A stretch of 64,000 nucleotides of DNA from an uncultured Gemmatimonadales bacterium (GTDB lineage: Bacteria > Gemmatimonadota > Gemmatimonadetes > Gemmatimonadales > Gemmatimonadaceae), in contig CAWKNZ010000009.1 in assembly GCA_963851265.1 (NCBI GenBank), positions 141,028 to 205,027 on the forward strand. The letters run 5' to 3'. Positions within the stretch are counted from its first letter, which is position 1, and each line of letters starts with the position of its first letter. The translations under genes and the position numbers were made by a program. Below are positions 231-64,000 of the stretch, piece after piece. Under the pieces are notes generated by a model, which did not search any database, was not told the origin of the DNA, and saw only the letters and a program-made list of their open reading frames with translations.

Positions 231-442
231 GACGGAGAAAGCTGGCCGCGTCGGCCCCCGCGCGACAGTCGCCTGGGGCCGGCAACTTCGGGCGCGGGCG
301 CGGCGCGGAGTGTTAGGCTCGTGACACCCCCCGACGCGGCCGCTCGTCGTCGGCACTCGTCGAAGGCGGGCGCGCCGTCGTAAGTTCCGGGCGGAAACCG
401 GGTGCGCGTGCGCGCGCGGGACGACCCCTGCAGGAGACTCTT

Positions 443-1357
443 GTGTTCAACCGACTGGTATGGGCCGCCGCGGCCGCGCTCGCCGCTGCATTCGGCGGGT
501 CGTGCGCGGGCCACGGTGGGACGTCCGCGGGGCCCGCGCGCGACCTCGCACACGCCCCCGCGCCCGTCGGCAGCCCCGCAGACCCGGTCGAGATTTACGC
601 GGTCCGTTACGGCACGCTGACGAACTTCCCGGTGGCGGCCCTCGTCGCCGGCGCAGACACGGCGCGGCGGATGGACATCGCGCTGATGGTGTGGCTGGTC
701 CGTGAGCCCGGTGCCGACGGGCATCCGCGCACCGTTCTGGTCGACGCCGGCTTCTACCGCGACGCGTTCGTCCGCCGCTGGCACCCCGCCGATTATCAAC
801 GCCCGTCGGCCGCCCTCGCGCCGCTCGGCGTGCGCCCGGAGGACGTGACCGATCTGATCATCTCGCACGTCCACTGGGACCACCTCGACGGCGCCGACCT
901 CTTCCCGAACGCGCGCGTGTGGATCCAGCGCGCGGAGTACGAGCACCACGTCGACGCGACCGGCCGGGTGCGAGACCGCGCGATCGACTCGACCGACGCG
1001 GCGATGCTCGCGCGGCTGCGGGCTGCCGGCCGGGTCAGGCTCTTGGACGGCGACAGCACTCAGGTGCTGCCGGGGATCGTGGCGTATACGGGCGGCCGGC
1101 ACACGTACGCGTCGCAATACGTGAGCGTCGCGACGCCGGAGGGCCCCGTCGTCCTCGCGTCGGACAACGCGTACCTGTACGAGAACCTCGACACGCATCG
1201 CCCGATCGCGCAGACGCTCGACACGGCTGCGAACCTCGCGGCGCAGGCGCGCATGGTCCGGCTCGCGGGCGATCCGCGCCGCATCGTGCCGGGCCACGAC
1301 CCGGCCGTCTTCGTACGCTTCCCGCTACCCGGCCACGGCATCGCACGTATCAGGTGA
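443..1357 (+). CDS. Metallo-beta-lactamase-fold hydrolase, N-acyl-homoserine lactonase-like family, with signal/lipoprotein-like N-terminus
   Basis: Motifs LVDAG, SHVHWDHLDG (HxHxDH), GRHT, LASD and PGHD; hydrophobic N-terminus ending GGSC. Confidence 0.85.
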   Translation: MFNRLVWAAAAALAAAFGGSCAGHGGTSAGPARDLAHAPAPVGSPADPVEIYAVRYGTLTNFPVAALVAGADTARRMDIALMVWLVREPGADGHPRTVLVDAGFYRDAFVRRWHPADYQRPSAALAPLGVRPEDVTDLIISHVHWDHLDGADLFPNARVWIQRAEYEHHVDATGRVRDRAIDSTDAAMLARLRAAGRVRLLDGDSTQVLPGIVAYTGGRHTYASQYVSVATPEGPVVLASDNAYLYENLDTHRPIAQTLDTAANLAAQARMVRLAGDPRRIVPGHDPAVFVRFPLPGHGIARIR

Positions 1358-1403
1358 CCGCGGGCGCGGGCCGGATACGACGTCGACGTCGAGGACCAGT
1401 CCA

Positions 1404-2007: not shown

Positions 2008-3075
2008 ATGACCAACGCGGACCCCACTCGGACCCGCATGCGTATGCCGTGGCGGACCACGCTCCCTGTCGCCGCCGCCGTCTTTCTCGGCCTCGGCGTC
2101 CTCTGGGGCCTCCGCGACATCGCGCGCCCGCTCGGCTTCCTCATCCTCGCGATCGCCGTCGCCGAAGCACTCGCGCCGCTCGTCGCCGCGCTCGAACGGT
2201 GGCGCGTGCCGCGCGGCGTCGCCATCAGCGTCGTCTACCTCGGCGTGCTCGTCGCCACCGTCGGCGTCGGCTGGCTCCTCGTCCCGACGATCATCGCGCA
2301 GACCGGCGAGTTCGTGAACCGCCTGCCCGCGCTCGCGTCCTTCGCACGCCGCCTCGCCGCCGAGGGACACGCAGCCATCGGCGCGCAACTCGACGCGCTC
2401 CTCGGCAACCTCGCGCGCCAGGTCGGCGGGTTCCTGCTCGCCGTACCGCTCCAGGCGTTCGACGCCCTGATCAACCTCATCCTGCTCGCGTTCCTGTCCG
2501 CGTACTGGCTGTTAGGCGAGCCGGCCCTCGTGCGCTTCGTGCTCACGCTCCTGCCCGAGCGCCGGCACGCCGCGGCGGCCGCGCTGTTCGACGCGATGGG
2601 CCGCGCCATGGGCGGCTACGTACGCGGCACCGCGATCAACTCCGTGCTCATCGGCGCCGCCGTCGGCGTGGGGCTCGCCCTCGCGGGCGTCCGCTACCCG
2701 GTCGTCCTCGGCACGCTCACCATGCTCCTCGAGCCGTTCCCCGTCGTCGGACCGTGGCTCGCGGCCGGCCCCGTCGCCCTCGTCGCGCTCCTCGACTCGC
2801 CCGGGAAGGCCCTGCTCGCCCTCGGGGTGTACGGCGTGCTGACGCAGGTCGGCGGTCAGGTCCTCACGCCCATCATCATGCGGCGCTCGACCGACATCCC
2901 GCAGACGCTCGTCATCTTCGCCATCCTCGCCGGCGCGGCGGTCGGCGGCCTCCTCGGGCTCGTCGTGTCGATCCCGCTCGTCGCCGCCCTGCGCGTGTTC
3001 GTGCTCCGCGTCGTCGTGCCCGTGGTGCGCCGGTGGACGGGGGCCGAGCCGGACGTTCCGTCAGCCGCGGCGTGA
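2008..3075 (+). CDS. AI-2E (PerM/UPF0118) family membrane transporter
   Basis: Several TM helices; PLVAALERWRVPR, MGGYVRG, PFPVVGP and GLLGLVVSIP motifs; GGAGG upstream of ATG 2008. Confidence 0.85.
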   Translation: MTNADPTRTRMRMPWRTTLPVAAAVFLGLGVLWGLRDIARPLGFLILAIAVAEALAPLVAALERWRVPRGVAISVVYLGVLVATVGVGWLLVPTIIAQTGEFVNRLPALASFARRLAAEGHAAIGAQLDALLGNLARQVGGFLLAVPLQAFDALINLILLAFLSAYWLLGEPALVRFVLTLLPERRHAAAAALFDAMGRAMGGYVRGTAINSVLIGAAVGVGLALAGVRYPVVLGTLTMLLEPFPVVGPWLAAGPVALVALLDSPGKALLALGVYGVLTQVGGQVLTPIIMRRSTDIPQTLVIFAILAGAAVGGLLGLVVSIPLVAALRVFVLRVVVPVVRRWTGAEPDVPSAAA

Positions 3076-6353: not shown

Positions 6354-8420
6354 ATGCCTCGCGCGGTCGGCTTCGTGGGGCGCGTTGCGCGACGCGGCCT
6401 CGCCCACGTGCGGCAGGGATTCGGGCAGCCCGCGATGGGACCGACGCGAGCCGAGCAGGCGTTCGAGGACCTACACCTGGCGCGCGAGGAAGCCGAGAGC
6501 ACGGCCGCTCGCCTCCGCACGGTCGCGGACGTGGCCGGCGGCGTCATCCGGGCCGACTCCTTGCCCGCCCTGCACGCGGTGCTCCGCGACGTCTGCGGTC
6601 AGCTGTTCACGTTCGACCGCTTCGCGGTGGTCGCGGGTGAGCCGGTCGGCCCACCCGGCACCCCCGTGCCATTGCGCGCCCTCGGGGACTCCGATCCGTC
6701 CCTGGCCGCTGTCGTCGTCGGCGGGATCACGGTCGCCGGGTGCGGGACCGCGCGGCCCGACTCGTTCTCGACGAGCGCGTCGTCGGTTCTTGCGGCATCG
6801 GACTGCTCGACCCTCGTCAGACCCGTGCTCGGCGACGACGCGGTGCTCGGCTATATCGCCCTGGGCGCCGACCGACCCGACGCCTTCCGAGTGAGCGACG
6901 GCGAGGTGCTCGAAGCGCTTGCCGCGCTGGCGGCCACCGCGATTCGCAACTTGGTGCTCGTCGGCGAGCTGCGGTACTCGCGCGAGGCGTACGCGCACCA
7001 GGCGCTGCACGATCCGCTGACCGGACTTCCCAACCGTGCCGGGCTGCACGAGCACCTCGCGCGGGTGCTGGGCGGCCCGCACCCGGAGCGCGTGAGCGTG
7101 CTCGTCCTCGACCTCGACGGCTTCAAGCGCGTCAACGATTCGTTAGGCCACCCGCAGGGCGACAGCCTGCTGGTGCAGGTCGCGGAGCGCCTGCTCGACG
7201 CCACGCGCGGCAGCGACACGGTCGCGCGACTCGGCGGCGACGAGTTTGCCGTGCTGCTCGAGAACACCCGTGCGCCGGACGACGCCGTCGCGGTCGCCGA
7301 GCGCGTCCTCGGGGCGCTCCGCGCGCCATTCGACCTCGGCGGCGCCGAGGCCATGGTCGGCACGAGCGTGGGTATCGCGTTCAGCGGCGCCGCCGAGGCG
7401 GACCTTCTGGGCGACGCGACGGCTCTGGGCGACGCCCTGCTGCGCGACGCGGACCTCGCCATGTACCGCGCGAAAGAATCGGGCAAGGGGCGATACGTAG
7501 TCTACGAGCCTCACATGCACGCGGAGGCGGTCAGTCGCCTCGAGCGCGAGGCCGATTTACGCGCGGCGATCGAGAAGCGCGAATTCCGCCTGTATTACCA
7601 GCCGATCGTAGCGCTCGAGACTGGGGCGGCGCTCGGCGTGGAAGCGCTGGTCCGCTGGGAGCACCCGCTTCGTGGCCTCGTCCCGCCTGCCGAGTTCATC
7701 CCGCTCGCCGAGGAGACCGGACTCATCGTGCCGCTCGGCCGTTGGGTCCTGGGCGAGGCGTGCCGCCAGGCGCGCGTGTGGGCCGACCACGCGTGGGGGA
7801 CCGACCTCACCGTGACCGTGAACGTGTCGGGCATCCAGCTCTACGACGCCGCGTTCGTCGAGGACGTCCGCCTGGCACTCGCGGCGAGCGGCGTCACGCC
7901 GCAGCGGCTCGTCCTCGAGCTGACCGAAACGGTCATGGTCGACCGACCCGGGCTCGCGCTCGAGCGGTTCAACGCACTCAAGGCGCTTGGCGTGCGGCTG
8001 GCCATCGACGACTTCGGCACGGGCTATTCGGCACTCAGCTATCTGCGCCAGTTTCCGTTCGACGTCCTCAAGATCGACAAGAGCTTCGTGGACGAGGTTG
8101 CCACCCGCGGGCAGGCCGCGACGCTCGCGGCGGCGATCGTCGCGCTCGGCAACGCATTCGCCCTGCGCACGGTGGCGGAGGGCGTCGAGTCGGCCGACCA
8201 GGCCACGGCACTCGGCGAGATCGGCTGCGCGATCGCGCAAGGGTACCATTTCAGCCGACCGCTCGCGGCGGAGGCGGTGACGGCCTGGCTCGCGGCCGAG
8301 CGGGTCGCCCCCGCGCCCGACCCACTCGGCGGGGTCACCGAAACGAGGTGGGCGCGGGAGCCCGCGGGCGGGCGGGCGGCGCCGCTGCGCACCGTGGCGA
8401 CGCGCGGCGAGCTGCCGTAA
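6354..8420 (+). CDS. GAF-GGDEF-EAL diguanylate cyclase/phosphodiesterase
   Basis: HDPLTGLPNR, DLDGFKRVNDSLGH, RLGGDEF, GVEALVRW, IDDFGTGYS, LKIDKSF and AEGVE are all intact; GAF-like region upstream. Start uncertain. Confidence 0.92.
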   Translation: MPRAVGFVGRVARRGLAHVRQGFGQPAMGPTRAEQAFEDLHLAREEAESTAARLRTVADVAGGVIRADSLPALHAVLRDVCGQLFTFDRFAVVAGEPVGPPGTPVPLRALGDSDPSLAAVVVGGITVAGCGTARPDSFSTSASSVLAASDCSTLVRPVLGDDAVLGYIALGADRPDAFRVSDGEVLEALAALAATAIRNLVLVGELRYSREAYAHQALHDPLTGLPNRAGLHEHLARVLGGPHPERVSVLVLDLDGFKRVNDSLGHPQGDSLLVQVAERLLDATRGSDTVARLGGDEFAVLLENTRAPDDAVAVAERVLGALRAPFDLGGAEAMVGTSVGIAFSGAAEADLLGDATALGDALLRDADLAMYRAKESGKGRYVVYEPHMHAEAVSRLEREADLRAAIEKREFRLYYQPIVALETGAALGVEALVRWEHPLRGLVPPAEFIPLAEETGLIVPLGRWVLGEACRQARVWADHAWGTDLTVTVNVSGIQLYDAAFVEDVRLALAASGVTPQRLVLELTETVMVDRPGLALERFNALKALGVRLAIDDFGTGYSALSYLRQFPFDVLKIDKSFVDEVATRGQAATLAAAIVALGNAFALRTVAEGVESADQATALGEIGCAIAQGYHFSRPLAAEAVTAWLAAERVAPAPDPLGGVTETRWAREPAGGRAAPLRTVATRGELP

Positions 8421-8463: not shown

Positions 8464-9948
8464 CTACGCCGAGTCGGCGCGGCTGCGATCGCGCCCCGTG
8501 GGGAAGCGGCGGTCGAGCTCCCCCTTGCCGGTCCGCACCCACGCATCACGCGTCACGCGGACGATCCGCAACGGGCGCGCGGCGAGTGGGCCTAACAAAT
8601 CCGGGAGGTCGCCGGCCTCCGGCACCGGCTCCACCTCGCCGGCAGTCGACAGGGCCAGCACCAGCGTCCGCCCGTCGGGCGACGACAGCAGGACGTCGGT
8701 GAGCTGCGGCCAGCGCGCACGCACCGCGCGCTCGACGGAAGCGGCGGGCACGAACCGGCCGTTCTCCAGCTTGAAGCTGTCTGCCGTGCGCCCCTCGAAC
8801 GTGTAGGTGCCGTCGAACTCCCGCCTCGCGAGGTCGCCGGTGCGCACCCAGCGCCCGGGTGGCTCGACGCTGATCCCGAGACCTCCGGCCGCGTCGGCCT
8901 CCCACACGCCGAGGCAGGCGTTCGCGCCGCGAAACGCGAGCACGTCGTCGGCGTCGAGGCGGACCTCACAGCCGACTGGGTGACCGAGCGCGCCCGCGTG
9001 CCACGCTCCCGGATCACCCATCGTGATGCCCGGCGAGGCTTCGGTCTGACCGTACCCCACGCGCAGTCGCGTGCCGCGGAGCAGATCGGCGAGTGTCGAG
9101 TCGACCGGCGCCCCACCGATCACCCCGCCGCGCAGCCGGCCTAACAGCGCGCGGCCCTCGTCGCGTTCGGCGAGCAGGCGCAAGGTGTACGGCACGGCGT
9201 GCAGGTGCGTGATCGGATGCTCGGCCGCCACGGCCAGCATGGCCGCGGCGTCGCGCCCCCCCGAGGGGTCGCGCAACAGCTCGGCGCCGGCCAGCAGCGC
9301 GGGGAGCAACTCGAGCACCAGGCCGAACGCGTGATGCCACGGCAGCACCGAGAGGACCACGGCCCCATCCATGGCCAGCAGCGGGGTGTGGCTTGCCAAC
9401 ACCGCTCGCACGTTGGCGTCGGAGAGCGCCACGCGCCGCGGGGCCCCAGTCGTACCACTGGTCTCGAGGAGGAATCGCGCCTCGCGGGTCGGCCCCGAGC
9501 GTGCCGGGCGCGGGATCACGGCAACGTCGGGCGGCGTGCCCGCGCGCTCCGCGGCGACGATCGCGGCAGCCGCCGGGCGGCCTGGTGCGACCACGGCATA
9601 GCGCGCATCGACGAGGTCGAGCAGGGACGCGACGTCGGCGCTGGCCGGCGCGGGCACGAACGTCAGATCGTCCCAGAGGGCCGCGACGAGCAGCATCGCG
9701 AAGCCCGGGCCGGGCGGCAGTGCACACACGACGCGGTCGCCCGGGCCGACGCCGTGCGTCCGCCACCACGCCGTCCACCGGCGCGCACCGGCCCACAGCG
9801 AGGCGGCGGCCACGAGGTCGTCACGCGTCCACAGCAGCGGGAGCGGACGGCCGCGGAGCCGGCGGTAGAGCGCGTCGCGCCACGACGACTCCGGCGCGGC
9901 ACGCTCCGGCGCGAAATCCGTGACCGCAGCATCAGGTCGCACGTCCAT
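8464..9948 (-). CDS. pcl: AMP-forming acyl-CoA ligase, probably the p-coumaroyl-CoA ligase for PYP
   Basis: ETSGTTG P-loop, VLPWHHAFG, GYGQTEASP and RTGDL motifs; divergent from the pyp-tal operon, so substrate is inferred from context. Confidence 0.75.
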   Translation of the reverse strand: MDVRPDAAVTDFAPERAAPESSWRDALYRRLRGRPLPLLWTRDDLVAAASLWAGARRWTAWWRTHGVGPGDRVVCALPPGPGFAMLLVAALWDDLTFVPAPASADVASLLDLVDARYAVVAPGRPAAAAIVAAERAGTPPDVAVIPRPARSGPTREARFLLETSGTTGAPRRVALSDANVRAVLASHTPLLAMDGAVVLSVLPWHHAFGLVLELLPALLAGAELLRDPSGGRDAAAMLAVAAEHPITHLHAVPYTLRLLAERDEGRALLGRLRGGVIGGAPVDSTLADLLRGTRLRVGYGQTEASPGITMGDPGAWHAGALGHPVGCEVRLDADDVLAFRGANACLGVWEADAAGGLGISVEPPGRWVRTGDLARREFDGTYTFEGRTADSFKLENGRFVPAASVERAVRARWPQLTDVLLSSPDGRTLVLALSTAGEVEPVPEAGDLPDLLGPLAARPLRIVRVTRDAWVRTGKGELDRRFPTGRDRSRADSA

Positions 9949-11279: not shown

Positions 11280-11291
11280 CCAGGCGCCTTC

Positions 11292-12185
11292 GTGGTAGAC
11301 ACCGTCAGCTACACGCCGCGCTTTGCCTGGGCGATGGTGGCCGCACCGGCCGCCACGGGGAGCGCCGTCGTCGCAACCAACGGGCCCGTAACCGGCGGGC
11401 CCGCGCAGGCGGGGCCGCCGAACGGCGCGGCGCTCGCGGAACTCGCGGCCGGGCTCGAGCGGAGCCGCGAGCGCGTGGAGACGCTGACCAACAGCGCGAC
11501 CACGGTACTCTGCCTCACCTCGGTCGTGCACACGCAGCTCGCGGACGTGGGCGCGCGCGCGGCCGACGTGAGCGGCGCGGCCGCGCGCGTGGCCGAGCAG
11601 AGCCGCGCTACGGCCACCGCGGCCGCGGAGATTCGCGCCCTGGTCGATGACGCGCGCGCGGCGGTTGCGGCGCTGGCCGGTCACGCGCGCGACATCGAGC
11701 ACGTGAGCACGCGCTTGAACGTGCTCGCCGTCGAGGCGCGCTTCGTCGGACTCAACGCGGCCATCGAGGCGGCGCGCGCCGGCGACGCGGGCCGAACCTT
11801 CGCGGTGGTGGCCGACAAGGTCCGCGAACTCGCCGACGGGGCATCCGACGCCGCGACGCAGATCATCGGCCGCCTCGGGCGCATCCGCGACGACGCGCTG
11901 CAGTCCGCGGCCGTGATGGAGCGCGCCGGCGTGTCGGTCGGCGCGATCGACGCGTTCACCGCCGGCGTGGCCGACGCCGCGGCGGCGCAGGAGGCGGGCA
12001 CCGCCGAGATCACGAGCAGCCTAACGCAGGTGTCGGGCGCGGTCGACGAGATCGTCCGTGCGGTAGAGGACATCACCGAAGTCGGCATGGTGCTCGGAGA
12101 CGGGACCGCCGAGAATCTCGCGCTCGCCGGCGCACTCGGCGCCGGCGCGGCGGCTTCCGATCCCGCGCCAGCGAGCGACTCGTGA
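11292..12185 (+). CDS. Soluble methyl-accepting chemotaxis (MCP) signalling-domain protein
   Basis: Hairpin-tip motif LNAAIEAARAGDAGRTFAVVADKVRELA with heptad helices on both sides; no TM or sensor domain seen. Start may be 11292 or slightly downstream. Confidence 0.85.
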   Translation: MVDTVSYTPRFAWAMVAAPAATGSAVVATNGPVTGGPAQAGPPNGAALAELAAGLERSRERVETLTNSATTVLCLTSVVHTQLADVGARAADVSGAAARVAEQSRATATAAAEIRALVDDARAAVAALAGHARDIEHVSTRLNVLAVEARFVGLNAAIEAARAGDAGRTFAVVADKVRELADGASDAATQIIGRLGRIRDDALQSAAVMERAGVSVGAIDAFTAGVADAAAAQEAGTAEITSSLTQVSGAVDEIVRAVEDITEVGMVLGDGTAENLALAGALGAGAAASDPAPASDS

Positions 12186-13861
12186 CCGCATCGCTCCGCG
12201 ACGTCCCGCGGGCGATCGCGCCCGGTGGCGAGGGAGACGCGGGCACGACGACGGTGGACCTGGGCGGACACGTCACGCCGGCCGACATCTACGCCGTCGC
12301 CGTCCGCGGGGCGCCGCCGCGAATCGGGCCCGACGCGCGGGCTCGGATGGAGGCGTCGGCGGAATACCTGGCACGGTGCGTCGACGAGCGGCGGCTGGTG
12401 TACGGCGTCACGACCGGCTACGGCCCGCTCGCGCGGCACCATGTCGGGCCGGAGCACGCCGCGACGCTCCAGCAGAACCTCATCTATCACCTCGCTTCGG
12501 GCGTCGGCGCGCCGCTCTCGCCGGCGCACACGCGTGCGCTGATGGCGGCGCGCGTCGCGAGCCTGGCCCGCGGCTACTCCGGCGTTGGGCGCGCGACCGC
12601 CGACCTGCTGCTCGCGTGCCTCACGCGCGGCGTCACGCCCGTTGTCCCCGAGCGGGGCACGGTGGGGGCGAGTGGTGACCTGACGCCGCTCGCCCACGTG
12701 GCGCTCGTGCTCATCGGCGAGGGGCGGGCCGCGTACCGCGGCGGCGTCCTGCCGGGGGCCGACGCGCTTCGGCTGGCGGGGCTCGCGCCGGTGGCGCTCG
12801 GGCACAAGGAGGGGCTCGCGTTGGTGAACGGCACGTCGGCGATGACGGGGATCGCCGCCGTGAACGCCGAGCGTGCGCGCCGGCTCGCGGAGCTGGTCGC
12901 GCGCCTCGCGGTGCTGCACGCCGAGGTTCTGGGGGGGCACGTCGAAGCATGGGACGCGCGCTTCGGGCGCGCGCGGCCGCACCCCGGGCAACGCGCGGCG
13001 CACGCGCGACTGCTGCGACTCGCGCGCGGGAGCGGCCGCCTAACGCCGTCGGTGCAGCCGCCGCCGCGGCTCGACGCGCGGAGCGAGGCGACCGGACTGT
13101 TCAGCGCGCCCGAGCCGCCGCAGGACCCGTACACGATCCGGTGCGTTCCGCAGGAGCTCGGCGCCGCTCTCGACGTGCTCGCCTTCCACGCCGGCGTGGT
13201 GGGAACGGAGCTCAACAGCGCCACCGACAATCCGCTCGTCTTCGCCGACGGCGCGGACGACCCGGATGGCGCGGTGTTGCACGGCGGCAACTTCTACGGC
13301 CAGCACGTCGCGTTCGCGAGCGACGCGCTCGCGATGGCGGTGGTCAAGCTCGCGGCCTGGAGTGAGCGGGCGCTCGCGCGGCTCACCAATCCGGCCTACA
13401 ACAAGGGGTTGCCGGCGTTTCTGCACGGCGGAGCGCCGGGGCTGACGAGCGGTTTGATGGGAGCGCAGGTCACGGCGACGGCACTCGTCGCGGAGATGCG
13501 CACCGGTGCGGTCCCTGCGTCGATCCAGACGATCCCGACGAACAACGACAATCAGGACGTCGTCACGATGGGTACGATCGCCGCTCGCAAGGCGAGCGGG
13601 CTGCTCGACCTCGCGTGGCACGTGCTGGCGATCCACGCGATCGCCGCCGCGCAGGCGTCGGAGTGCCGGGCGCGCGAGGGCGGCGCGCGGGCGCCCGGCG
13701 ACGCGGGCTTCTCCTCCGCGAGTGCCGCGCTCTGGTCGGCGGTACGCGGCGCGGTCGCACCGCTCGACACGGACCGCCCCCTGTCCGACGACATCATGCG
13801 CCTCGCCGAGGCGCTGGAGCACGACGACGCGCTGCTCGGTGCGAGCCCACTCCTGACGTAG
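12182..13861 (+). CDS. tal: MIO-dependent aromatic amino acid ammonia-lyase, tyrosine ammonia-lyase type
   Basis: VYGVTTGYG, GTVGASGDL (MIO ASG), LVNGT, QDPYTIRC and HGGNF; specificity segment NLIYHLASG has the His-Leu pair typical of TAL; GTGA overlap with the MCP gene. Confidence 0.88.
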   Translation: MTASLRDVPRAIAPGGEGDAGTTTVDLGGHVTPADIYAVAVRGAPPRIGPDARARMEASAEYLARCVDERRLVYGVTTGYGPLARHHVGPEHAATLQQNLIYHLASGVGAPLSPAHTRALMAARVASLARGYSGVGRATADLLLACLTRGVTPVVPERGTVGASGDLTPLAHVALVLIGEGRAAYRGGVLPGADALRLAGLAPVALGHKEGLALVNGTSAMTGIAAVNAERARRLAELVARLAVLHAEVLGGHVEAWDARFGRARPHPGQRAAHARLLRLARGSGRLTPSVQPPPRLDARSEATGLFSAPEPPQDPYTIRCVPQELGAALDVLAFHAGVVGTELNSATDNPLVFADGADDPDGAVLHGGNFYGQHVAFASDALAMAVVKLAAWSERALARLTNPAYNKGLPAFLHGGAPGLTSGLMGAQVTATALVAEMRTGAVPASIQTIPTNNDNQDVVTMGTIAARKASGLLDLAWHVLAIHAIAAAQASECRAREGGARAPGDAGFSSASAALWSAVRGAVAPLDTDRPLSDDIMRLAEALEHDDALLGASPLLT

Positions 13862-16150: not shown

Positions 16151-16170
16151 GGGGCGTTAGGCGACGCCCC
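16151..16170. terminator. GC-rich hairpin between convergent genes
   Basis: GGGGCGT-TAGGCG-ACGCCCC, a 7-bp stem with no U-tract. Confidence 0.35.
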
Positions 16171-16203: not shown

Positions 16204-17703
16204 TCACCGGTGCAGCGGGCTTCCGGCCTTCCACACCGGCGCGGCGTCCTGCCCCGCCACGCGCGCTACGAGCGCGTAGTAGAACCGGTTGAAGTCCGCC
16301 GCCGCCTTCCAGTCGATCCGCTGCTGGAGGTCGTCTTTCGGCGTGTGGTATCCCTCGCGGTACCACTGGCGGTAGATGCGCTCGCTCTCCGTCCCGGGGC
16401 GGTAGCCGAACACGAAGTTCGTCGCCGGAATCCCCGCCTGGAGGAACGGCCAGTGGTCGGAGCGCTGCAGGAGGCCCCGCTCGGGCTCGGGGTCGCGCTG
16501 CACGGCGATCCCGAGCGACTCCGCCACGGCGCGCGCGTCGTCTCCCAGACTCGTGTCGTCCAGGCCGTGCACGGTGAGAAGCTCCAGAGGGAAGAGCGGG
16601 CGGAGCTGGTCGAGGTTGATGTCTCCGGCGATCCGCGCGCGCGGTACGGGCGGGTGCGCGACGAACCACCGAGAGCCGAGGAGGCCCTTCTCCTCGCCCG
16701 TGACGATCGCGACGATCACGGGGCGTCGGAAGCCCTGCCCGTGGCGCCGCTCGAGGACGCGGACGATGAGGGCGACGTACGCCGCGTCGTCGAGCGTTCC
16801 GTTGTAGAGCGAGTCGCCGTCCACCGCCGTCCCATAGCCATAGCCGTCGAGGTGCGCGGTGAGGACGATCGCCTGGTCGGCCTTCGTCGGGTCGGTGCCC
16901 GGGAGCATGCCGACGACGTTAGGCGAGCGCAGCGTCCGCCGCGCCGTCGAGAACGTCGCGCGCAGGCGGTCGCGCAGGTCGAAGGCGGGCAGGGGTCGCC
17001 CGGCGCTCCCCGCGGCGACGAGGGAGTCGGCGTTCGGCCCGCTCCCCCCGAGCACCGTCCGAAGCGCTCCGGCGCGCAGCGAGAGGGTGACGAACCCGGG
17101 GTCGCGAGCCGGAGGTGTCGGCGTCCCGCCGGCCAGCGTGACGCTCCGCGCGTAGGCCGCCGGCCAGCGCGGCGGCTCCACGGTGAAGCCCGGGTCGGCG
17201 ATCGCGATCATCCCGGCCGCCCCCGCCTGCTGCAGCGCGGCCCGCCGCTGCTCGTCGTTAGGCAATCCGGGTCGCCGCGTGGCGTGGCAGATCACCAGCT
17301 TCCCGCGCACGTCGCCCAGCGCGTCGGCCCCGCAGTAGCCGCGGTAGGCGAGCGCGCCTTCGAGCGTCGCCGGTGCTGCCTGCGCGCGCAGGGTGACGTC
17401 GTACAGGAAGCGGAGGGACCGGCCGCCGACGTCGAGGTGCGCGCCGGTGACGGCCACCTCTTCCATCGGCACCGACTGGTACCACGACCCGTCGTCCCCG
17501 AGCGGCTTCACCCCCGCCGCAGCGAGCCACCGAGCGACGTGCCGCGCGGCGTGCTCGTGCCCGCGCGACCCGGTGTCGCGCCCCTCCATGGAGTCGGCGG
17601 AGAGGACCGTGGTCCGCTGCCACCACGCGCGCGTGTCGGCGTCGGTGGGGCCACCCGGAGGCGTCTGGAGGAGCGCGAGAACGGAGAGAACGACGGCGAG
17701 CAT
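16204..17703 (-). CDS. M28 family metallopeptidase with PA-like insert, exported
   Basis: LSADSMEGRDTGS, TAHLDG, NGTLDDA, TGEEKGLLGS, RSDHWPF and YHTPKD motifs. Confidence 0.9.
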   Translation of the reverse strand: MLAVVLSVLALLQTPPGGPTDADTRAWWQRTTVLSADSMEGRDTGSRGHEHAARHVARWLAAAGVKPLGDDGSWYQSVPMEEVAVTGAHLDVGGRSLRFLYDVTLRAQAAPATLEGALAYRGYCGADALGDVRGKLVICHATRRPGLPNDEQRRAALQQAGAAGMIAIADPGFTVEPPRWPAAYARSVTLAGGTPTPPARDPGFVTLSLRAGALRTVLGGSGPNADSLVAAGSAGRPLPAFDLRDRLRATFSTARRTLRSPNVVGMLPGTDPTKADQAIVLTAHLDGYGYGTAVDGDSLYNGTLDDAAYVALIVRVLERRHGQGFRRPVIVAIVTGEEKGLLGSRWFVAHPPVPRARIAGDINLDQLRPLFPLELLTVHGLDDTSLGDDARAVAESLGIAVQRDPEPERGLLQRSDHWPFLQAGIPATNFVFGYRPGTESERIYRQWYREGYHTPKDDLQQRIDWKAAADFNRFYYALVARVAGQDAAPVWKAGSPLHR

Positions 17704-23194: not shown

Positions 23195-24013
23195 CGCGCT
23201 GGCCCTCCTGGCGCTCGCGCGCCGACGTGCTCGGCCCTTGCCGCTGCTCGCCCCCGCCGCCGGCGCGCCGACGGGGACCGAGCGTTCGCCGCGGGGCCGC
23301 ACGCAGTCTGCTCGCGGGGTCCGGGCGCGTCCATCAGAAGCGCGCGAACCCACACTTCCCGAACACCCGACACGGGCCCGGCGGTAGACGTGGCGGCGAC
23401 GATGGCCGCCGCCGCGCTCTCGGCCTTGCCAATGACCGCGGTGACCGAGGTGGCGCAGATTCATGCCAGTTCGCGGCGAACTCGTCGTCGGTCATCTCCT
23501 CGGCCGCTCTCCGCCCCCCTTTCGCGTACGGCTACTGGCCGACGCACCATCACCCCGCCCTCGCCCGTGGCGCTCAGGCCGCACACGGTGCAGGAAATCG
23601 TCCACGGGCGGGCCCACTCAGCCGTGGACCGGGCCAAGCGCCTCCTGCTGACGACCACAGCTTCGGGCCTCGTAGCCTCATGGAGCGGGAACGCACGTGG
23701 GCCGGCGCCCGCGCGTGGACACCCACGCGAGCTCGTCGTTTGCCGGGTGCTCAGCGCCCGTTTCGATCGCGGTATCGGTGCCTAACGGTGAGACGCCGCT
23801 CGGATCTCGAACGCTGATGCGATGTTAGTACGCATCTCGTCAGTGTTCGAGCCGTCGCACGACGGCCTGACCCCCCAGACCCGGCCGCGCCCCACCCCTC
23901 GTCGGCGCGCCGGCACCGCCGCGGAATGGGGCGTGCGAACGACCGTCCAGCGTGCACACCCGTCGGCCGACGGTCGTGCTCGTTCGGGCCCACGTTTCCG
24001 GAGCATCTTCGTC

Positions 24014-25018: not shown

Positions 25019-25431
25019 CCGCACCACCGGGCGCGCACGCCGCGACCCACGCGCCGCGACCCACGCGCCGCGTGCACCGCGCGAGTCGGGCGGTGAAGAG
25101 GAGCTCGGCGTGGGGCGTCGCAGGCCAGAACCCGGGCAGCGGCCGTTCCGCAAGTCGCACCCCCCGAGGACGGCCCGGGGACGCGCGCGTCCGCCCGGCG
25201 TGCTCCGTGTGTTAGGCGCTGCCCGCGAACAGGCTCAGCACCCGCCAATGCGGCCCGTGCTCGGAGCCGGCGGCGGGCCGACCCTGACGCGCACACCCGT
25301 CCCTCGCGCGAACGCCGGCGAAGTCGCGCCTGCTGCCGTGACGGGCACGGGCCAGTCCGCGCTTGCGAACCGCAACGCCGCCGGTATCGTGACGCGGTCG
25401 GCGTCATCGGGCCGACCGACGACTCACACGC

Positions 25432-27816: not shown

Positions 27817-28293
27817 CGCGCGGGGAGCGGCACCGGCATCGAACGGCAGGGGCACCCCGCCTGGCACCTGCCGCCAAACCGCGTCCCGGAACGACGCGTG
27901 CGGGCCCCCCAAGCCGACGTCGGCCGATACGGGCGAGTGGCGAACGCCGAATCGGACACCAGCATCGGGCCGATTCTGAGACGTTAGGCGGCAGCATACT
28001 AGAACGCGTCGCACGAGCCGTCGCACCAGCACGCGTCCCGAAATGCTCGGCGCGTGGGGCGGCGCGACGGCCGGCGCGGAAACGGCCAAGTTCTCGGTGT
28101 CTCAGCCGAGTTGTATCGAGCCGTGCGGGGACACCATTCGTCCAGCGTGATTGGCGGGCTATCCGCCCGGCGACCGATGAGAATTGGCGAGGGCGGCGGT
28201 CTGTCGGGTTGATTCACGGGCACGCCCCACGCGCCCCACGCGGCGCCCCGCGGCCGCGTGTCTCCGCGCCCACCCTTCCGGCTCCGTTCCCAC

Positions 28294-38835: not shown

Positions 38836-39467
38836 CACCGTCTCCTGGGGGTGTGGTGAGTGCGCGGCGTGCGCACCCACGCTCAGACGGCGACCGACCG
38901 GGAAAATCATCGGTGTGACCTCGACCCGTCGCTCGGACACCGGCGCAGGAGGACCCGCGCCGCTTCGCGCCGCGACGCTCCCGTGCCACGATCGGAAGCG
39001 TGAATGAGTGGGTCGGATATGCGATACGGCCGCGTCTCACCTGGGTGCCCCGCCGCAAGGACGCGGTGGTGTCGCGAGACCCGGCCTCATAATCAGCGAC
39101 TCAAATCGCTGCCCCGTCACGAGTTCGGAGACGGTCGAGCACCATGCGGCAGCGGCCTTTGCGCGCTCCGGTGCTGAGAGTTGGCGCGGCTGGCCCGAGT
39201 GGGCGCGTGCAAGCGGATGCGATGACACGAAGCCAGTCCGGTGCGAGCCGAACGTACGCCCATGTTCGCGCGAGTGCCGACAACACGCGCGTGATACGCG
39301 CACGGAGGCCCGTTTTCGGAGGGCCGGCCCGATGCAGATCTATTTCCTACGTAAGCAACACCTACAAAGAGAAGTACGCCTGATACCGCGGCTTGCGACC
39401 CCCAGCCTGCTCCCTGGTCGTGCGCACGATGTCGCGGGCGTCGGCGCCGGCGATCGCGACGTACACG

Positions 39468-39917
39468 TTAGGCGGTGGGCCAGGGCGGGTCGAAGGCGAA
39501 GCCGGGCACCAGGGCGGCGAGGCGGACGAAGTCGCGCGCGTTGCGCGTGACCAGTCGGATGCCGTGGGCCCGACACGCGAGCGCGAGGTGCACGTCGTTG
39601 ACGAGCGACTTGCTCATGTCCGCGACCGTCGGGCCGTGCGCGTTCGCGAACCGGCGCATCACGTCCCCCGCCTCGCCCCACTCCGGGTACCCCGACGCGA
39701 ACACCCGACCGCGACGCAGGAACGGACCGAGCACCTCGCGTTCGAGCCGGCGCTGCTCGGGCGGCCGGACGCCGGCCCGGAGTTCCTGGGCCACGACGCC
39801 GGACAGATACAGCCACGGCGCGAACGCCTCGCTGAACCCGGCCAGCGCGGCGCGGTGGGCGGGGTCGCGGGCCGCGTCGACGTAGAGGTTCGTGTCCAGG
39901 GTGTACCGGGCGGGCAC
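39468..39917 (-). CDS. PIN-domain (VapC-like) toxin
   Basis: LDTNLY, VAQEL, NDVHLA and LVTRNARDF give the acidic PIN motifs. Confidence 0.85.
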   Translation of the reverse strand: MPARYTLDTNLYVDAARDPAHRAALAGFSEAFAPWLYLSGVVAQELRAGVRPPEQRRLEREVLGPFLRRGRVFASGYPEWGEAGDVMRRFANAHGPTVADMSKSLVNDVHLALACRAHGIRLVTRNARDFVRLAALVPGFAFDPPWPTA

Positions 39918-39930
39918 GGGACGCGCCGCG

Positions 39931-40230
39931 TTAGGCGTCCCGATCGAACGCGTCGAAGGTCATCCCGGCGAGCGCCTCGGCGCCCGTCCTGAGCTCGCGG
40001 CCGAACAGGACGTAGTCCAGCGCCGCGTCGAGGGTGGCCGTGTCATTCGGCGTGCCGAGCACGCGACGCGCGGCGGCCAACCGCGCGGGGTCGAGGCGGA
40101 ACGCGCGGGGCCCGGCCTTCTTGCCCGGGGCCACGGGCCGTCCGGCCGCGGGCGCGCGGGTCGACGTCCCCGCGCCTGACGTGGCGGCGCGCGGCGGCCG
40201 CGCCGCGGGGTGAGATTCGGATTTCGCCAC
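39931..40230 (-). CDS. VapB-like antitoxin
   Basis: FRLDPARLAAARRVLGTPNDTATLDAAL (RHH-like); AGGAG RBS; 13 bp upstream of the PIN gene. Confidence 0.7.
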   Translation of the reverse strand: MAKSESHPAARPPRAATSGAGTSTRAPAAGRPVAPGKKAGPRAFRLDPARLAAARRVLGTPNDTATLDAALDYVLFGRELRTGAEALAGMTFDAFDRDA

Positions 40231-50125: not shown

Positions 50126-50940
50126 CGCTCGGCCCACGACGGCGCGTCCCCCGGAACGGACCAGACCCCCTCGGCGGATCCGGTCGGCCGGGGGCACGCC
50201 GCGGTTGGATACGGGGCGGTCCCAACGCCAGCGCTCGGGGGCGTCTCGCACCGACCGCATGCGCGTGCCGGACCCCGCAGGCGGCGCGACCCGGGCCGCA
50301 CGGGCGCGCACCGCCCACACCGGCCAGCGAGGGTCGTTTTCCGGAATGTTGGAGTTACGTCCGGAAAACGTCGTGGGAGCCTAACGTGAGACCGGCGTCC
50401 CGTCTCCTTACCGTACGACTCCTGCGCGTCTCCGTTGAAGAGTGGGCGTCCTGGCCCGGCGGACGCGTGGTCGGCATCGCGGCACGTCGTGATGGGCCGG
50501 CCGGGCGTGTTAAGTTCGTGGCCTAACACGCCCGACCGGCCTACCACGCGTCCCCACCCCACCGCATGCCCCCGCCCCGCGCGGGCGGTGACAGCATCGC
50601 GCGCCATCTGCTGCGCAACGCGTAGCCCCACTACCCCGCGGTGCTTGGAGGAATCCGCGCCGCCCGTACGGCGGCGCCGGCCGCTCGGACGCCACGCCCG
50701 GGCTCAACCCTGGCTACCCGCACCTGAACCGCTGCATCCGCGTCGCCGACTTGGACGCGCTCGCCGGCGGCGGACCGAGGTACGACAATTTGTCCCATCG
50801 TGGAACTTCCTCGCGGTGGACGTGTACGGCAACGTCACACGCGCTGCGGAGGTACACCAGGCGGGCGCGTGGGGCGGCTGTGCCGCTCCCCACGAGGTTC
50901 CCGGCGCTTCTGGCGACGCCAGCCGCCACAGGTACGCCGC

Positions 50941-51939: not shown

Positions 51940-52217
51940 CGACCGCGACGACCACGGACGACCGCCGACTCGGCGTGCTCGGACCGCTGTACGCCCGTTT
52001 CGACGCGATCGCCACCGGGCACGACCGCCACGGTAGCAGCCAGGCGGCCCACCGCGCCATCCTCGACCGGCTCGCCGCGAACGGGCGTGCGGCCGAGGCG
52101 GACGGGTGGACGGCGTGCGCGCTCGAGCGCGACGGCGGGTCGGGGCGGCTCCGGCTCATCGGCGTCGCGCCCCATTCGACGCGGCGCGTCGTAGTCCCCG
52201 ACGCCGGCAGCGCCTAA
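51936..52217 (+). CDS. Small hypothetical protein
   Basis: 93 aa, GC3-rich, translationally coupled to the previous ORF. Confidence 0.45.
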   Translation: MTTATTTDDRRLGVLGPLYARFDAIATGHDRHGSSQAAHRAILDRLAANGRAAEADGWTACALERDGGSGRLRLIGVAPHSTRRVVVPDAGSA

Positions 52218-52570
52218 CGTACAGGCGCCGCGTCTTCCGGCGTCGCGCCTACGAGCGCCGGGCCTACGAGCGCCGGGCCTACGAGCGCCGGGCCTACGAG
52301 CGCCGGGCCTACGGGCGCCGGGCCTACGGGCGCCGCGCTCACGGGCGCCGCGCCGGTCCACCGGCGCACGACCGGCGCGAGCACGCGCCGCGTGAAGACG
52401 AGGAGCGCCGCGACGAGCGGGATCGACACGACGAGGCCGAGCAGCCCGCCGACCGCGGCGCCCGCGAGGATCGCGACGATGACGAGCGTCTGCGGGATGT
52501 CCGTCGCGCGGCGCATGATGATCGGCGTGAGGACCTGCCCGCCGACGGTCGCGACCAGGTAAACCGTCAA
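52214..52570 (-). pseudogene. 3' fragment paralogous to the AI-2E transporter at 2008-3075
   Basis: VGGQVLTPIIMRRATDIPQTLVI...VVRRWTG is nearly identical to the C-terminus of that gene. Confidence 0.85.
52248..52352. repeat. 15-bp tandem repeat, 7 units (CCTACG[A/G]GCGCCGGG consensus)
   Basis: Read directly; encodes (P/L)VGPA repeats on the minus strand. Confidence 0.95.
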
Positions 52571-57521: not shown

Positions 57522-57557
57522 CACACCATCCCGGTCCGAGAGCTCAGGAGCGCTCGC

Positions 57558-59087: not shown

Positions 59088-59404
59088 CGGGCGCAGCGGT
59101 TGAGCGTGAGGCAGGCGTGCATTGCGGTGGTGACCACCCGTCGATCGAACGCCGCGAGCGGGGCGACGCGGGGGACCGACGGAGCGGACGTGTGGCGTGT
59201 CGTCCCGTAGGATTCCTGCGATGTCGCGCGCACCAGGGGCGTGGTACGCCGAACACGCCTAACGTGGGGCTTCTGACTGAGGGCGAGGGGAATCATCCTC
59301 ATCGTGGACACGCGTCGCTGCTCGGGCGTTGTCGCAGATTGTGGCCGGGCGGCGAGACGGCGCTCCGTTCTCGATGTGCCACCCCCCGCCCGGCCACGAT
59401 CTGC

Positions 59405-61141: not shown

Positions 61142-61197
61142 GTCGTATCAGTCCGGAGGTGGTGTTCGACGGGGAGCGTGAGGACGCGGGTGCGTGC

Positions 61198-64000
61198 TCA
61201 GTACGACAGGTCGAGGCCGACCGTGAACGTGCGCGGGAGCGGGTAGTTGGCGAAGCCGATCTCGGGGTCGGGCAGGGTCGTGTTGCCCTTGACCGTGAAC
61301 AGGTTGCCGCCACGCACGTACGCCCGCGCGCCGGCCAGCAGACTCAGGCCGCGTGGGAGCCCGCCCTGCGGCAGCGTGTAGCCGACGACCACCTCGCGCA
61401 GCTTCAGGTACGACCCGTTCTCGACGAAGTAGGTCGACGTCCGCGCCTCGTCGTTGCCGTTGGACAGCGTGAGCGCCGGGATCGTGCTGGCCGGGTTCTG
61501 CGGCGTCCACGCGTCGAGCACGCGCGTGCCGAAGTTCGCGCCCGTGAAGATCGACGTGAAGTCGGTCTGCGTCTTGATCCCGTTGTAGACCTTCGCGGCG
61601 GCGCCCTGGAGCAGCACGTTCAGCGTGAAGCGCCGGTAGGTCACCGTCGGGTTGATCCCGTACGTGAATTTCGGATCGGTCGTGCCGAGCCACGTCTGGT
61701 CGAGGCTGTTGACCACGCCGTCCCCGTTCAGGTCCTTGTACCGGAGCCGGCCGATCCCCTTGCCGGGCTGCCCCGCGGCCGCGTCCACCTCGGCCTGGTT
61801 CTGGAAGATCCCCTGCACCACATAGCCGAAGATCTCGTTCGGCGAATGGCCGAGGATCGTCTGGAATCCGTTCCCCGGGTAGGAGCCGACGACCGCCGCC
61901 GGCAGGCTGGTGATCTTCGGCTTGAACGTCCCGATGTTCACGCCGAGCCCCCACGTCAGCGCGCCCGCGCTGCGGTCGTACCGGGCCGACGCCTCGGCGC
62001 CGCGCACCTTGATGGTCGCGCCGTTCTGCGTCTCGTTGCCGCCTTGGCCGATCACTGCGGCGTAGGACGGGGTGATCAAGATGTTGCTGGTCGTGCGCGC
62101 GAAGGCGTCCACCGACCCGTTCACGTGCCCGCCGAAGAGACTGTAGTCGGCACCGTAATTGTTCTCGCGCGTCCCCTCCCAGCGCAGGTTGGCGTTGCCG
62201 GTCTGCGTCCGATAGAAGCCAGACGGGAGCGTCCCCGTGTTCTGCCCGTGGATGTCGTACGCGGTGCTCGACCGGCCGGACCCGTCACTGTTCTCGACGC
62301 CGTAGCCCGGGACGTACAGCGAGTACTGCGCGTTGTTCGGGATCGCCTGGTTGCCGGTTTCGCCGTAGCCGTAGCGCAGCTTCAGGTCCGAGACGAAGCT
62401 GTGTGTCGGAAAGAACGGCTCCTTGCTCACGCGCCAGCCGAGCGTCGCCGACGGGAAGAGCCCGTACCGGTTGTTCGCCCCGAAGCGCGACGAGCCGTCG
62501 TCGCGCAGCGTGACCGTGGCGAGGTAGCGATCGAGGTAATCGTAGTCGGCTTTGCCGAAGACCGACGCGAGCGCGTACCCGCCGTTGTCGCCGGCAACGG
62601 TCTGCAGCCCGGTCCCGGCGTTCTGCGTGAAGTAGTCCCGCGTCTCGATCGCGTAGCCTTGGTGGTTCGCGTTGACGTTCGCGTAGCTGCTGTTGACCGC
62701 CTCGAATCCCGCGAGCAGTCGGACGTTGTGCACCCCGAACTGGTGGTTGTAGTTGAGCGTGCTGTTGAACGTCCAGTCGGTCGCGTTCTCCGTGAACTGG
62801 TTCAGCGAGGCGATCGTCCGGCTGAGGAACCCCGCCTGATACGTGCGGAAGATCGCGGTGTTGTCGGTGTTGCGGTGGTCGATGCCGAACCGCGCGTTCG
62901 CCTGCAGGTCGGGCGTGATGTTGTACTGCGCGAAAACGTTGCCCAGGCCCTGCAGGTTGTTGTTCCGGTTGAACGAGTTGAGGTCCAGCAGCATGACCGG
63001 ATTGTCGCGGTCGTCGAACCCGGCGCCCGTCGGGCCTCCCCAGCCGCCGGTGGTCGTGTGGACCGGGAGGATCGGCTGCACGAGCAACGAGAGCGCAAGG
63101 GGGTTGCCGCCTGCCCCGCTCGGCAGAGGGATCGCCGAGCCGTAGAGCACCGACATGTTCTCGCCGACCGTTAGGCGGTTCTTGAAGAAGTTGTACGACG
63201 AGTTGATGCGCCCGTTGAACCGTTTGAGGTTGGTCCCCTTCACGATGCCCTCGTTGTCGTAGTAGCCGAGGGAGAGGAGCGCCGCGCCGCGCTCGTTCGA
63301 CGTGTTGGCTTGCAGCGTGTGCTCCTGGATGACGCCCGTCCGCGTCACCTGGTTCCACCAGTCGGTGTTCGACGCGAGCATCGTCGTGTCACCGCCGACG
63401 TATTGCGGCACGATGACCTTGTTGAGCGTGACGGCACCGTTGCCGTTCCGCGTGTAGTCATACGTGTAGATCGGCAGGTTCTTCGGGTCGCTCCCGTCGT
63501 TGATTGCGGCCTGGAAGAGCGCGGCCCCGCGCTGCTCGGTGTTGAGCACCGACAGCTTCGACTGGTAGCCCGAGGTCGTCACGTGACTCCCGACCGAGAC
63601 CTGCGTTCGCCGGTTCGCGCCAGACTTCGTCGTGATGACGATGACGCCGTTGGACGCGCGCGAGCCGTAAATCGAGGCGCTGGCCGCGTCCTTGAGCACC
63701 TGCAACGTCTCGATGTCCTCGGGCTTGAGCTGCTGGGCAGCCGAGCTCTGGCTCGGGATGCCGTCGATGACGTAGAGCGGGTCCTGATTGCCGAGCGTGC
63801 TGAACCCGCGGATCCGCACCTGGCCGAGGGTCGCCGGGGTCGCCGTTCTCGTTGATCGTGACGCCGGCGACGCGGCCCTGCAGCGCCTTGATCGGACTGT
63901 TCTGGACCGCGGCCTGCGCCTGGATCTCGTTCGGGTTTACCTCAGCGATCGCACCCGTCAGCTTCTCTGGTCGGGACCGACTGGTAACCGAGGACCGCCA
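61198..64000 (-). CDS. SusC/RagA TonB-linked outer-membrane transporter; 5' end beyond the window, with apparent frameshifts in the last 170 bp
   Basis: IRG...[31 protein letters not shown] and DGSSRFG; upstream LGYQS, KLTGAI and ALQGRVAGV lie in shifted frames. Confidence 0.92.

Follow-up and report, generated by a model that had tools for sequence, protein, structure and literature searches.

YGTTAGGCR, a hyper-abundant word in scattered genera of one order of Gemmatimonadota, as a possible DNA uptake or self-recognition tag

Introduction

A 64-kb stretch of the genome of an uncultured Gemmatimonadales bacterium (contig C9, positions 141028-205027; this whole stretch is referred to as the window, and its source genome as G000) carries the heptamer GTTAGGC 21 times, 12 times on the plus strand and nine times on the minus strand. 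The positions of these 21 copies had been given in an initial annotation made from the letters of the window, and every coordinate matches. The locus raises the question of why one short word should be repeated so often, on what level it is constrained, and what may read it. Very few groups of bacteria are known to have hyper-abundant words in their genomes. These words are the uptake signal sequence (USS) of Pasteurellaceae, the DNA uptake sequence (DUS) of Neisseriaceae, the highly iterated palindrome (HIP1) of cyanobacteria, and Chi, and each of them has opened up a piece of DNA biology. For GTTAGGC, the constraint is on double-stranded DNA, and uptake or self-recognition is the best-supported function among the readings weighed here.

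Results

Genome-wide abundance of GTTAGGC

When the window was shuffled 100 times with its dinucleotides preserved, a mean of 2.56 and a maximum of seven copies were obtained and no shuffle reached 21, which is close to the three copies by chance estimated initially. As had also been noted, all 21 copies are preceded by a pyrimidine (15 by C and six by T; expectation for the 8-mer, 1.35), in a window whose GC content ranges from 65 to 75%. The enrichment is not restricted to the window. The whole assembly (4.60 Mb in 12 contigs, 73% GC) contains 1762 copies, 885 on the plus and 877 on the minus strand, or about one site per 2.6 kb, against Markov expectations of 160, 96, and 126 under order 1, 2, and 3, respectively. 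GTTAGGC is the most over-represented 7-mer of the genome, at 14-18 times the Markov and 17.7 times the codon-aware expectation, and the top-ranked 8-mer is CGTTAGGC, with 1396 copies. Neither of the outcomes that the initial annotation had named as refuting, counts explained by a Markov model or enrichment limited to the window, was thus obtained. These models were used in place of maximum-order Markov z-scores, which mask GTTAGGC, its sub-words being enriched too.

The word is sharply bounded. Of the 1925 TTAGG pentamers in G000, 1762 fall within GTTAGGC, and CGTTAGGC is found at 24 times its expectation, whereas its one-mismatch variants are found at 0.4-3.7 times, save for the variant with T at position -1 (11 times). 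Genome-wide, position -1 is C at 1396 sites, T at 243, G at 69, and A at 54, and position +7 is G at 953, A at 390, C at 336, and T at 83 (54, 22, 19, and 5%); 1244 of the 1762 sites have the form YGTTAGGCR. All 12 contigs are populated at 0.33-0.55 sites per kilobase, and the word is present on every replicon. Two megaplasmids of a cultured relative, Gemmatirosa kalamazoonensis KBS708, carry 115 sites in the 150 kb sampled (∼0.77 per kilobase), where the word once more ranks first among 7-mers and 8-mers. A small replicon of 20,952 bp in another relative (G304, contig C4) has 19 copies in 20 kb, and some 15 kb of its sequence is present two times on the contig.

The sites are more evenly spaced than expected, with 46 gaps shorter than 200 bp against 130 under an exponential model. 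Similarly even spacing has been reported for USS. Site density climbs with local GC content, from 0.26 per kilobase at 68% GC to 0.50-0.68 per kilobase at 76-78% GC. This trend is opposite to the prediction from composition alone and fits avoidance of the word in more constrained genes. Five hairpins formed by inverted motif pairs sit at gene ends in a terminator-like manner.

A single gap is a statistical outlier, namely a motif-free stretch of 45,086 bp (contig C1, 182876-227962; GC content 0.738), where about 17 sites would be expected. The genes within it are mnmG, parA, parB, mnmE, and ordinary ones, and the stretch may recently have been replaced by DNA from a motif-poor donor. On the same contig, dnaA (11460-12997) also lies within a motif gap of 15 kb. 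An exclusion zone around parAB was considered as a general property and rejected, since sites are present there in five of five other motif-rich genomes (G001, G004, G304, G240, and G297).

Polarity relative to replication was evaluated on about 1 Mb of contig C2. The GC skew of G000 is weak, and on C2 both the cumulative skew and the gene strand peak near 1.35 Mb, a position that resembles a terminus and that the tested region flanks. Motif orientation tracks gene strand on this contig because Leu-Gly is far commoner than Pro-Asn. Among contexts compatible with the word, 119 of 670 (17.8%) carry it on the leading strand and 43 of 290 (14.8%) on the lagging strand (z ∼1.1, not significant). 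Thus, in this region no replication polarity was detected apart from that of gene strand, and the absence of polarity read initially from the 12/9 strand split is borne out.

The constraint acts on double-stranded DNA

Genes were called crudely as open reading frames with the GC1/GC2/GC3 pattern of high-GC genomes, which gave 2742 genes covering ∼75% of the DNA and undercounts the real genes. In the window, 11 of the 21 sites are within these gene calls (five sense xxG-TTA-GGC, three antisense CCT-AAC, and three antisense CTA-ACG; codon-aware expectation, 0.77), and two further sites make stop codons (39467, GCC-TAA; 52212, TAG), so that each of the frames named in the initial annotation is represented (Table 1). 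Across G000, the 1089 in-gene sites comprise 794 sense xxG-TTA-GGC, 40 sense GTT-AGG-C, 189 antisense xxG-CCT-AAC, and 66 antisense xGC-CTA-ACx, and GGC follows 803 of the 1127 TTA codons.

The seeming preference for sense sites comes from the supply of suitable peptides. The word is carried by 794 of 8870 X-Leu-Gly contexts (8.95%), by 190 of 1300 X-Pro-Asn contexts in antisense (14.6%), by 66 of 1624 [CSRG]-Leu-Thr contexts (4.1%), and by 40 of 3299 Val-Arg-x contexts (1.2%), the last of which need two rare codons. Under a codon-aware model, in which amino-acid sequences are fixed and codons are drawn from G000 usage, 1090 in-gene sites were observed against 61.6 expected, and the four stop-free frames on both gene strands are enriched 28, 23, 8.6, and 7 times. 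The flank preferences (Y at -1, and not T at +7) are alike in each frame and outside genes. Furthermore, the preceding codon matters by its base and not by its amino acid, with shares of 14-19% for NCG, 4-8% for NTG, 2-4% for NAG, and ∼1% for NGG. Frame-independent enrichment and shared flanks therefore place the constraint on double-stranded DNA, not on peptide or RNA, in keeping with the selection at the DNA level suggested initially.

Table 1. The 21 GTTAGGC sites of the window, with one flanking base on either side (window coordinates; codons are those of the gene concerned)
Sequence	Position	Strand	Context
TGTTAGGCT	311..319	+	antisense in gene, read CCT-AAC (Pro-Asn)
TGTTAGGCG	2510..2518	+	AI-2E transporter gene, sense CTG-TTA-GGC (Leu-Leu-Gly)
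CGTTAGGCC	7141..7149	+	GGDEF-EAL gene, sense TCG-TTA-GGC; G001 orthologue without site here
TGTTAGGCC	8589..8597	-	AMP-binding enzyme gene, sense TTG-TTA-GGC
TGTTAGGCC	9138..9146	-	AMP-binding enzyme gene, sense CTG-TTA-GGC
CGTTAGGCT	12018..12026	-	MCP-signal gene, antisense, read AGC-CTA-ACG (Ser-Leu-Thr)
CGTTAGGCG	13037..13045	-	aromatic amino acid lyase gene, antisense, read CGC-CTA-ACG
CGTTAGGCG	16155..16163	+	within G+C-rich inverted repeat (GGGGCGT...ACGCCCC), convergent genes either side; terminator-like position
CGTTAGGCG	16917..16925	+	M28 peptidase gene, antisense, read TCG-CCT-AAC (Pro-Asn)
CGTTAGGCA	17256..17264	+	M28 peptidase gene, antisense, read TTG-CCT-AAC
CGTTAGGCA	23779..23787	-	not in any crude gene call
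TGTTAGGCG	25210..25218	+	not in any crude gene call
CGTTAGGCG	26033..26041	+	DPP IV / S9 peptidase gene, sense ACG-TTA-GGC
CGTTAGGCG	27982..27990	+	not in any crude gene call
CGTTAGGCG	39466..39474	+	complement GCC-TAA = stop codon of minus-strand gene 39468-39917
CGTTAGGCG	39929..39937	+	not in any crude gene call
CGTTAGGCT	50378..50386	-	not in any crude gene call
TGTTAGGCC	50520..50528	-	not in any crude gene call
CGTTAGGCG	52211..52219	-	TAG = stop codon of minus-strand gene 52214-52570
CGTTAGGCG	59256..59264	-	not in any crude gene call; lower-GC end of window
CGTTAGGCG	63169..63177	+	TonB-dependent receptor gene, antisense, read CGC-CTA-ACG

Toward the end of the window (56000-64000), GC content falls to 0.66-0.70; this part encodes a YhcG-type PDDEXK nuclease (56259-57521) and a SusD / TonB-dependent receptor pair (59405-63819).

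Distribution and turnover of sites among relatives

Genomes were regarded as motif-rich when GTTAGGC exceeded twice the count of the reversed word, used as a control. By this threshold, 13 of 41 relatives are motif-rich (G000-G004, G008, G012, G017, G018, G023, G036, G038, and G040), with G012 reaching 6360 copies in 5.1 Mb. In a survey of 301 genomes of the phylum, 12 exceed the threshold (G000, G121, G131, G165, G193, G240, G292, G297, G298, G304, G173, and G211), all in two families of the same order and none in families f4-f12. The tallies include the unpublished genomes G011 (among the 41) and G085, G124, and G203 (among the 301), all of which are motif-poor, and no claim rests solely on them. 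Enrichment is thus seen only in some scattered genera within a single order of Gemmatimonadota, and sharing across a whole family, as with USS or DUS, was not observed in either survey.

The history of the sites was followed most clearly within one genus, in which G240 and G297 share 78.7% identity across 37.5 kb. G240 has 29 sites that can be aligned, and 25 of them are exact in G297, with differing flanks, against a neutral expectation of about 0.787^7, or ∼19%; four further sites are unalignable, and ten aligned sites are specific to G297. Conservation of the word in this pair is therefore beyond neutral. Genome-wide, G240 has 3896 copies and G297 has 4141, whereas the congener G293, 72% identical to G240, has 66, with none in 22 kb around parB. 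At eight of eight alignable positions, G293 shows one to four mismatches, mostly three or four. Since no decayed remnants are found in G293, gain rather than loss is indicated, and the alignments point to rapid gain on the branch leading to G240 and G297, with maintenance afterwards.

Closer to the window, three sites in two of its genes have no counterpart at the matching positions of G001. Across the alignments of both genera, lost or absent states are synonymous Leu-Gly codons such as GTTGGGC, GCTGGGC, and GCTCGGC, which differ by substitutions and not by indels. The possibility that TTAGGC had been left behind as a 6-bp scar when cassettes inserted was rejected, as aligned orthologues show synonymous substitutions and not gaps.

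The same word in integron cassette arrays

The consensus of integron core sites is GTTRRRY, which GTTAGGC fits, and GTTAGGC is the R' box of the attC sites of this order's integrons. G000 has a cassette array on contig C10 (∼186-215 kb; 186000-215025), in which folded attC hairpins carry GCCTAAC as R'' and CGTTAGGCG as R'. Transposase genes of the rve type also lie in the array, and their conserved Ala-Leu-Gly is encoded by GCG-TTA-GGC. The intI gene of G000 (contig C6, 3005-6044) is interrupted: pieces matching family-model positions 2-265 and 260-313 lie 2 kb apart, and the insert between them has a gene for a large serine recombinase on the opposite strand.

In two motif-poor relatives, G027 and G025, the word is scarce, and its copies are in same-strand arrays at ∼500-700 bp spacing. 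A strict regular-expression attC finder gave only two sites, and attC in relatives was read from the sequence around each word. Among 44 occurrences, position -1 is C in 41, and position +7 is G in 24, A in 11, C in seven, and T in two, a profile close to the genome-wide percentages of G000. The outer attC flanks are strongly biased in these occurrences (G at +8 in 34/44, C at +9 in 40/44, and T at -3 in 35/44), and the genome-wide sites of G000 do not share them. Pairs of an inverse core and a core that fold together are limited to cassette arrays, and genome-wide sites stand alone. The arrays on G027 contigs C95 and C80 and G025 contig C3 have ∼62% GC, and the sequence just upstream is nearly identical between copies; they look like large sedentary chromosomal integrons. 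IntI was searched with TIGR02249 (E<=1e-30) and found in 30 of 41 relatives. Ten of these are among the 13 genomes exceeding twice the control, and 20 are among the remaining 28; therefore, it is not associated with enrichment.

Discussion

A tag for DNA uptake or self-recognition

Since the word has been put into genes in thousands of copies in defiance of codon usage, some protein probably reads it. Our tentative reading is that YGTTAGGCR serves as a tag for DNA uptake or self-recognition, comparable to USS, DUS, and HIP1, and we assign this reading a probability of roughly 35%. YGTTAGGCR would be a double-strand DNA tag spread over every replicon by selection or by some form of drive. It is written chiefly where Leu-Gly is recoded as TTA-GGC, with further copies in Pro-Asn, x-Leu-Thr, and Val-Arg contexts, in stop codons, and in hairpins between genes. 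A component of the transformation machinery at the surface or in the periplasm would prefer to bind word-bearing DNA, and homologous recombination of that DNA would then enrich and maintain the word. That uptake is the spreading process is what we infer.

The analogy with known systems has several elements. Like USS and DUS, GTTAGGC is a short exact word present in thousands of copies per genome, roughly one per 1-3 kb, in equal numbers in both orientations, in genes in whichever frames tolerate it, with spacing evener than chance, and the genomes have a type IV pilus and ComEC; occasional inverted pairs lie in hairpins that may be terminators. Unlike USS and DUS, its core is only 7-9 bp, its enrichment is uneven across a family and even across a genus, no dialect was seen in the one motif-poor genome sampled, no ComP-type receptor was found, and its sites are not preferentially intergenic. 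Like HIP1 (GCGATCGC), it is hyper-abundant in coding DNA in several frames, and conservation of HIP1 between species beyond neutral is described in the available part of one study (PMC5861425). The function of HIP1 was long unknown, and the accessible portion of a more recent source proposes that it is an uptake sequence aiding transformation (PMC13756078). HIP1 is a palindrome, methylated by cognate methylases and found nearly phylum-wide; unlike it, GTTAGGC is asymmetric and not its own reverse complement, corresponds to no N6-methyladenine (m6A) motif in the methylome of one motif-rich relative, and is limited to scattered genera of one order.

As judged from its genes, the order looks equipped for transformation. 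ComEC and PilM were each found in 40 of 41 relatives. A FimT-like minor pilin of G000 (contig C7, 452372-452776) ends in SRLGRVR; its match to Pfam GspH scores 17.1 bits, under the 21-bit cut-off. Of 41 relatives, 37 have homologs, and the C-terminus is SR[LT]GRxR in each of the 30 aligned copies. A C-terminal GRxR motif is given as the DNA-binding signature of FimT in the portion of the FimT report available (PMC8897410). Conservation of pilM, comEC, and the FimT-like pilin across the order points to a general capacity for DNA uptake.

Several observations weigh against an uptake tag. This machinery is present in motif-rich and motif-poor genomes alike, and it therefore does not explain why 13 of 41 relatives are enriched and 28 are not. 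No column in the alignment of the 30 FimT-like pilins splits the two groups. ComP_DUS (PF16732) was not found in G000, and the weak matches to it in seven of 41 relatives are not related to enrichment. USS and DUS are relatively enriched between genes, whereas GTTAGGC is about equally dense in DNA with codon periodicity (0.36 per kilobase) and without it (0.43 per kilobase). Pairs within 50 bp are inverted in six cases and direct in 13. Within the genus of G000, at ∼82% identity in alignable DNA, sites are conserved in 4/11, 4/9, 4/9, and 1/4 cases (pairs counted both ways), which is only slightly above the neutral expectation of ∼25%. In the 400 kb sampled from one motif-poor genome, G006, no alternative word is hyper-abundant: none exceeds ∼5 times expectation (z at most 12), against z of 40-49 in an equal sample of G000, and DUS-style dialects were rejected on this sample. 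In the literature searched, no report on an uptake sequence or on measured uptake in Gemmatimonadota was found, and no published report of the motif in the phylum was found either (supplementary files excluded).

Candidate readers were rejected where their presence or sequence did not track enrichment; these are IntI, the Type IIG-like methylase, ComP_DUS, RecC, AddB-like proteins, ComEC, Vsr, PilM, and the FimT-like pilin.

Alternative explanations

The word could instead be a self-tag for a cytoplasmic helicase-nuclease or a defense system, with a Chi-like logic but without RecBCD, such that resident DNA, bearing the word at intervals of a few kilobases, is spared or repaired. Under this explanation, the system would be mobile, and lineages acquiring it would have accumulated the tag. 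The contrast between G240 or G297 and G293, the lack of decayed remnants in the latter, the strong maintenance of sites in the former pair, the tagging of the 21-kb element of G304 at host density or above, and the deficit of close pairs are all in line with it, and the raw leading-strand orientation bias on C2 is Chi-like. Like Chi of RecBCD and AddAB (5-8 nt), GTTAGGC is an asymmetric over-represented word of similar density and sharp definition; its enrichment is far stronger than that of Chi. However, the bias on C2 vanishes once gene strand and peptide context are controlled. RecC was found in one of 41 relatives. G000 has an AddAB-like operon on contig C3, and AddB-like genes are sporadic, being found in nine of 41 relatives and three of 13 motif-rich ones, and not in G001, G003, G004, G008, or G012; enzymes of the AdnAB type were not searched for separately. 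No candidate nuclease or defense system was identified, and a nuclease requiring the tag would be harmful on arrival in an untagged genome. Taken together, we consider a nuclease self-tag somewhat unlikely.

The identity of the word with the R' box is striking, yet it gave no mechanism. The word might be read genome-wide by IntI or a related protein of the tyrosine-recombinase type, either for cassette capture or in a co-opted role. The fit to the core consensus, the attC sites of the C10 array, and the cassette-like spacing of the G027 and G025 copies, together with the identical 7-mer, the pyrimidine at -1, and a purine-rich, T-poor +7 that match the genome-wide sites, all speak in its favor. 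Nevertheless, genome-wide sites lack the R'' box, the L boxes, the hairpin, and the outer flanks of attC, inverse-core and core pairs are few outside cassette arrays, IntI presence is independent of enrichment, and intI in G000 is broken by the serine-recombinase insert. Genome-wide sites also arise by synonymous substitution and not by insertion of 6 bp. Finally, according to the available part of one preprint, insertion of cassettes into genomes by IntI needs only GWT (bioRxiv 10.1101/2022.09.11.507474). An integron-linked reader of the genome-wide sites is thus unlikely.

A third explanation is that the word is the binding site of an abundant chromosome-structuring protein, as Xu et al. read HIP1. 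The conservation beyond neutral could be argued in the same way, as was done for selection on HIP1 and its nucleoid role in what is available of that study (PMC5861425), and the close-pair deficit and the one motif-free zone over mnmG-parA-parB-mnmE could be counted for it. This zone carries the motif in all five of the other motif-rich genomes compared, no candidate nucleoid protein was found, and the megaplasmids and the 21-kb element are tagged at chromosome-like density. The nucleoid or partition site offered in the initial annotation is thereby left without support, and we regard a chromosome-structuring role as distinctly unlikely.

Quite improbable, in our judgment, is a combination of uptake and integrons, in which the reader would be a component of DNA uptake or recombination aimed at the attC R' box, whose bias would have written thousands of copies into its own genomes. 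Each cassette carries the word twice, so free cassette DNA would be preferentially taken up or captured, and the genome-wide copies would have arisen in lineages that gained the specificity. If true, such a reader would mean that a single 9-bp code connects natural transformation with the traffic of integron cassettes.

Among the functions proposed initially, uptake is retained, and the methylation-linked one is weakened. In the latter, which follows Elhai's HIP1 model or very-short-patch repair, a methyltransferase would mark the word and a mismatch endonuclease would restore it. The accessible portion of one HIP1 study reports that alternative HIPs track matching methyltransferases (PMC4390886). 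G000 has an intact Type IIG-like restriction-methylase gene (1141 aa; contig C7, 582086-585511). However, Type IIG-like genes are present in 40 of 41 relatives, enriched or not, with identity that tracks phylogeny. Sequencing by the single-molecule real-time (SMRT) method detects m6A and N4-methylcytosine (m4C) well and 5-methylcytosine (m5C) poorly. The SMRT methylome of G. kalamazoonensis KBS708, whose megaplasmids are motif-rich, has three m6A motifs, RGATCY, ATGCAC, and CCAGN7TCA, none of which is GTTAGGC (PMC3974934). Methylase genes of the PF01555 (N4/N6), PF00145 (C5), and PF02086 (Dam-type) families and Vsr were not found in G000, and PF02384 (HsdM-like) is represented there by frameshifted pieces only, near contig ends (contig C7, 771474-772495, and contig C9, 923-1858). 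Vsr occurs in four of 41 relatives, none of them motif-rich, and no one-mismatch precursor of the word is depleted. The modification reading is thus largely refuted for m6A and m4C, and drive by methylation and repair is very improbable overall.

The Type IIG-like gene has features of its own. Its conservation in 40 of 41 relatives with phylogeny-like identity is not what restriction systems usually show. Among the family's motif-poor genomes, many copies have an in-frame stop or are split near residue 507-546, and the gene is intact in the motif-rich G000, G001, G004, G008, and G012; exceptions are G011 and G014 (intact, motif-poor) and G017 (stop, motif-rich).

A translational or RNA signal, in which rare TTA codons act as a regulatory device, would account for the frequent GGC after TTA and for the rarity of the motif in lower-GC stretches, which may hold highly expressed genes, but it is refuted by the enrichment in antisense frames (7-8.6 times, with a carrying share of compatible contexts as high as in sense) and by the frequency of the word outside genes, and we give it virtually no weight.

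Significance

GTTAGGC is a clean new case of a hyper-abundant word in a poorly studied soil phylum: it is asymmetric, apparently unmethylated, and seems to have been gained quickly and then held by selection. The cultured, fully sequenced, and motif-rich strain G. kalamazoonensis KBS708 makes the tag directly testable. Identifying its reader would uncover either an uptake specificity or a self-recognition system that is new, or else tie integrons unexpectedly to the rest of the genome. In these hard-to-manipulate bacteria, the tag may also be needed for DNA to be transformable.

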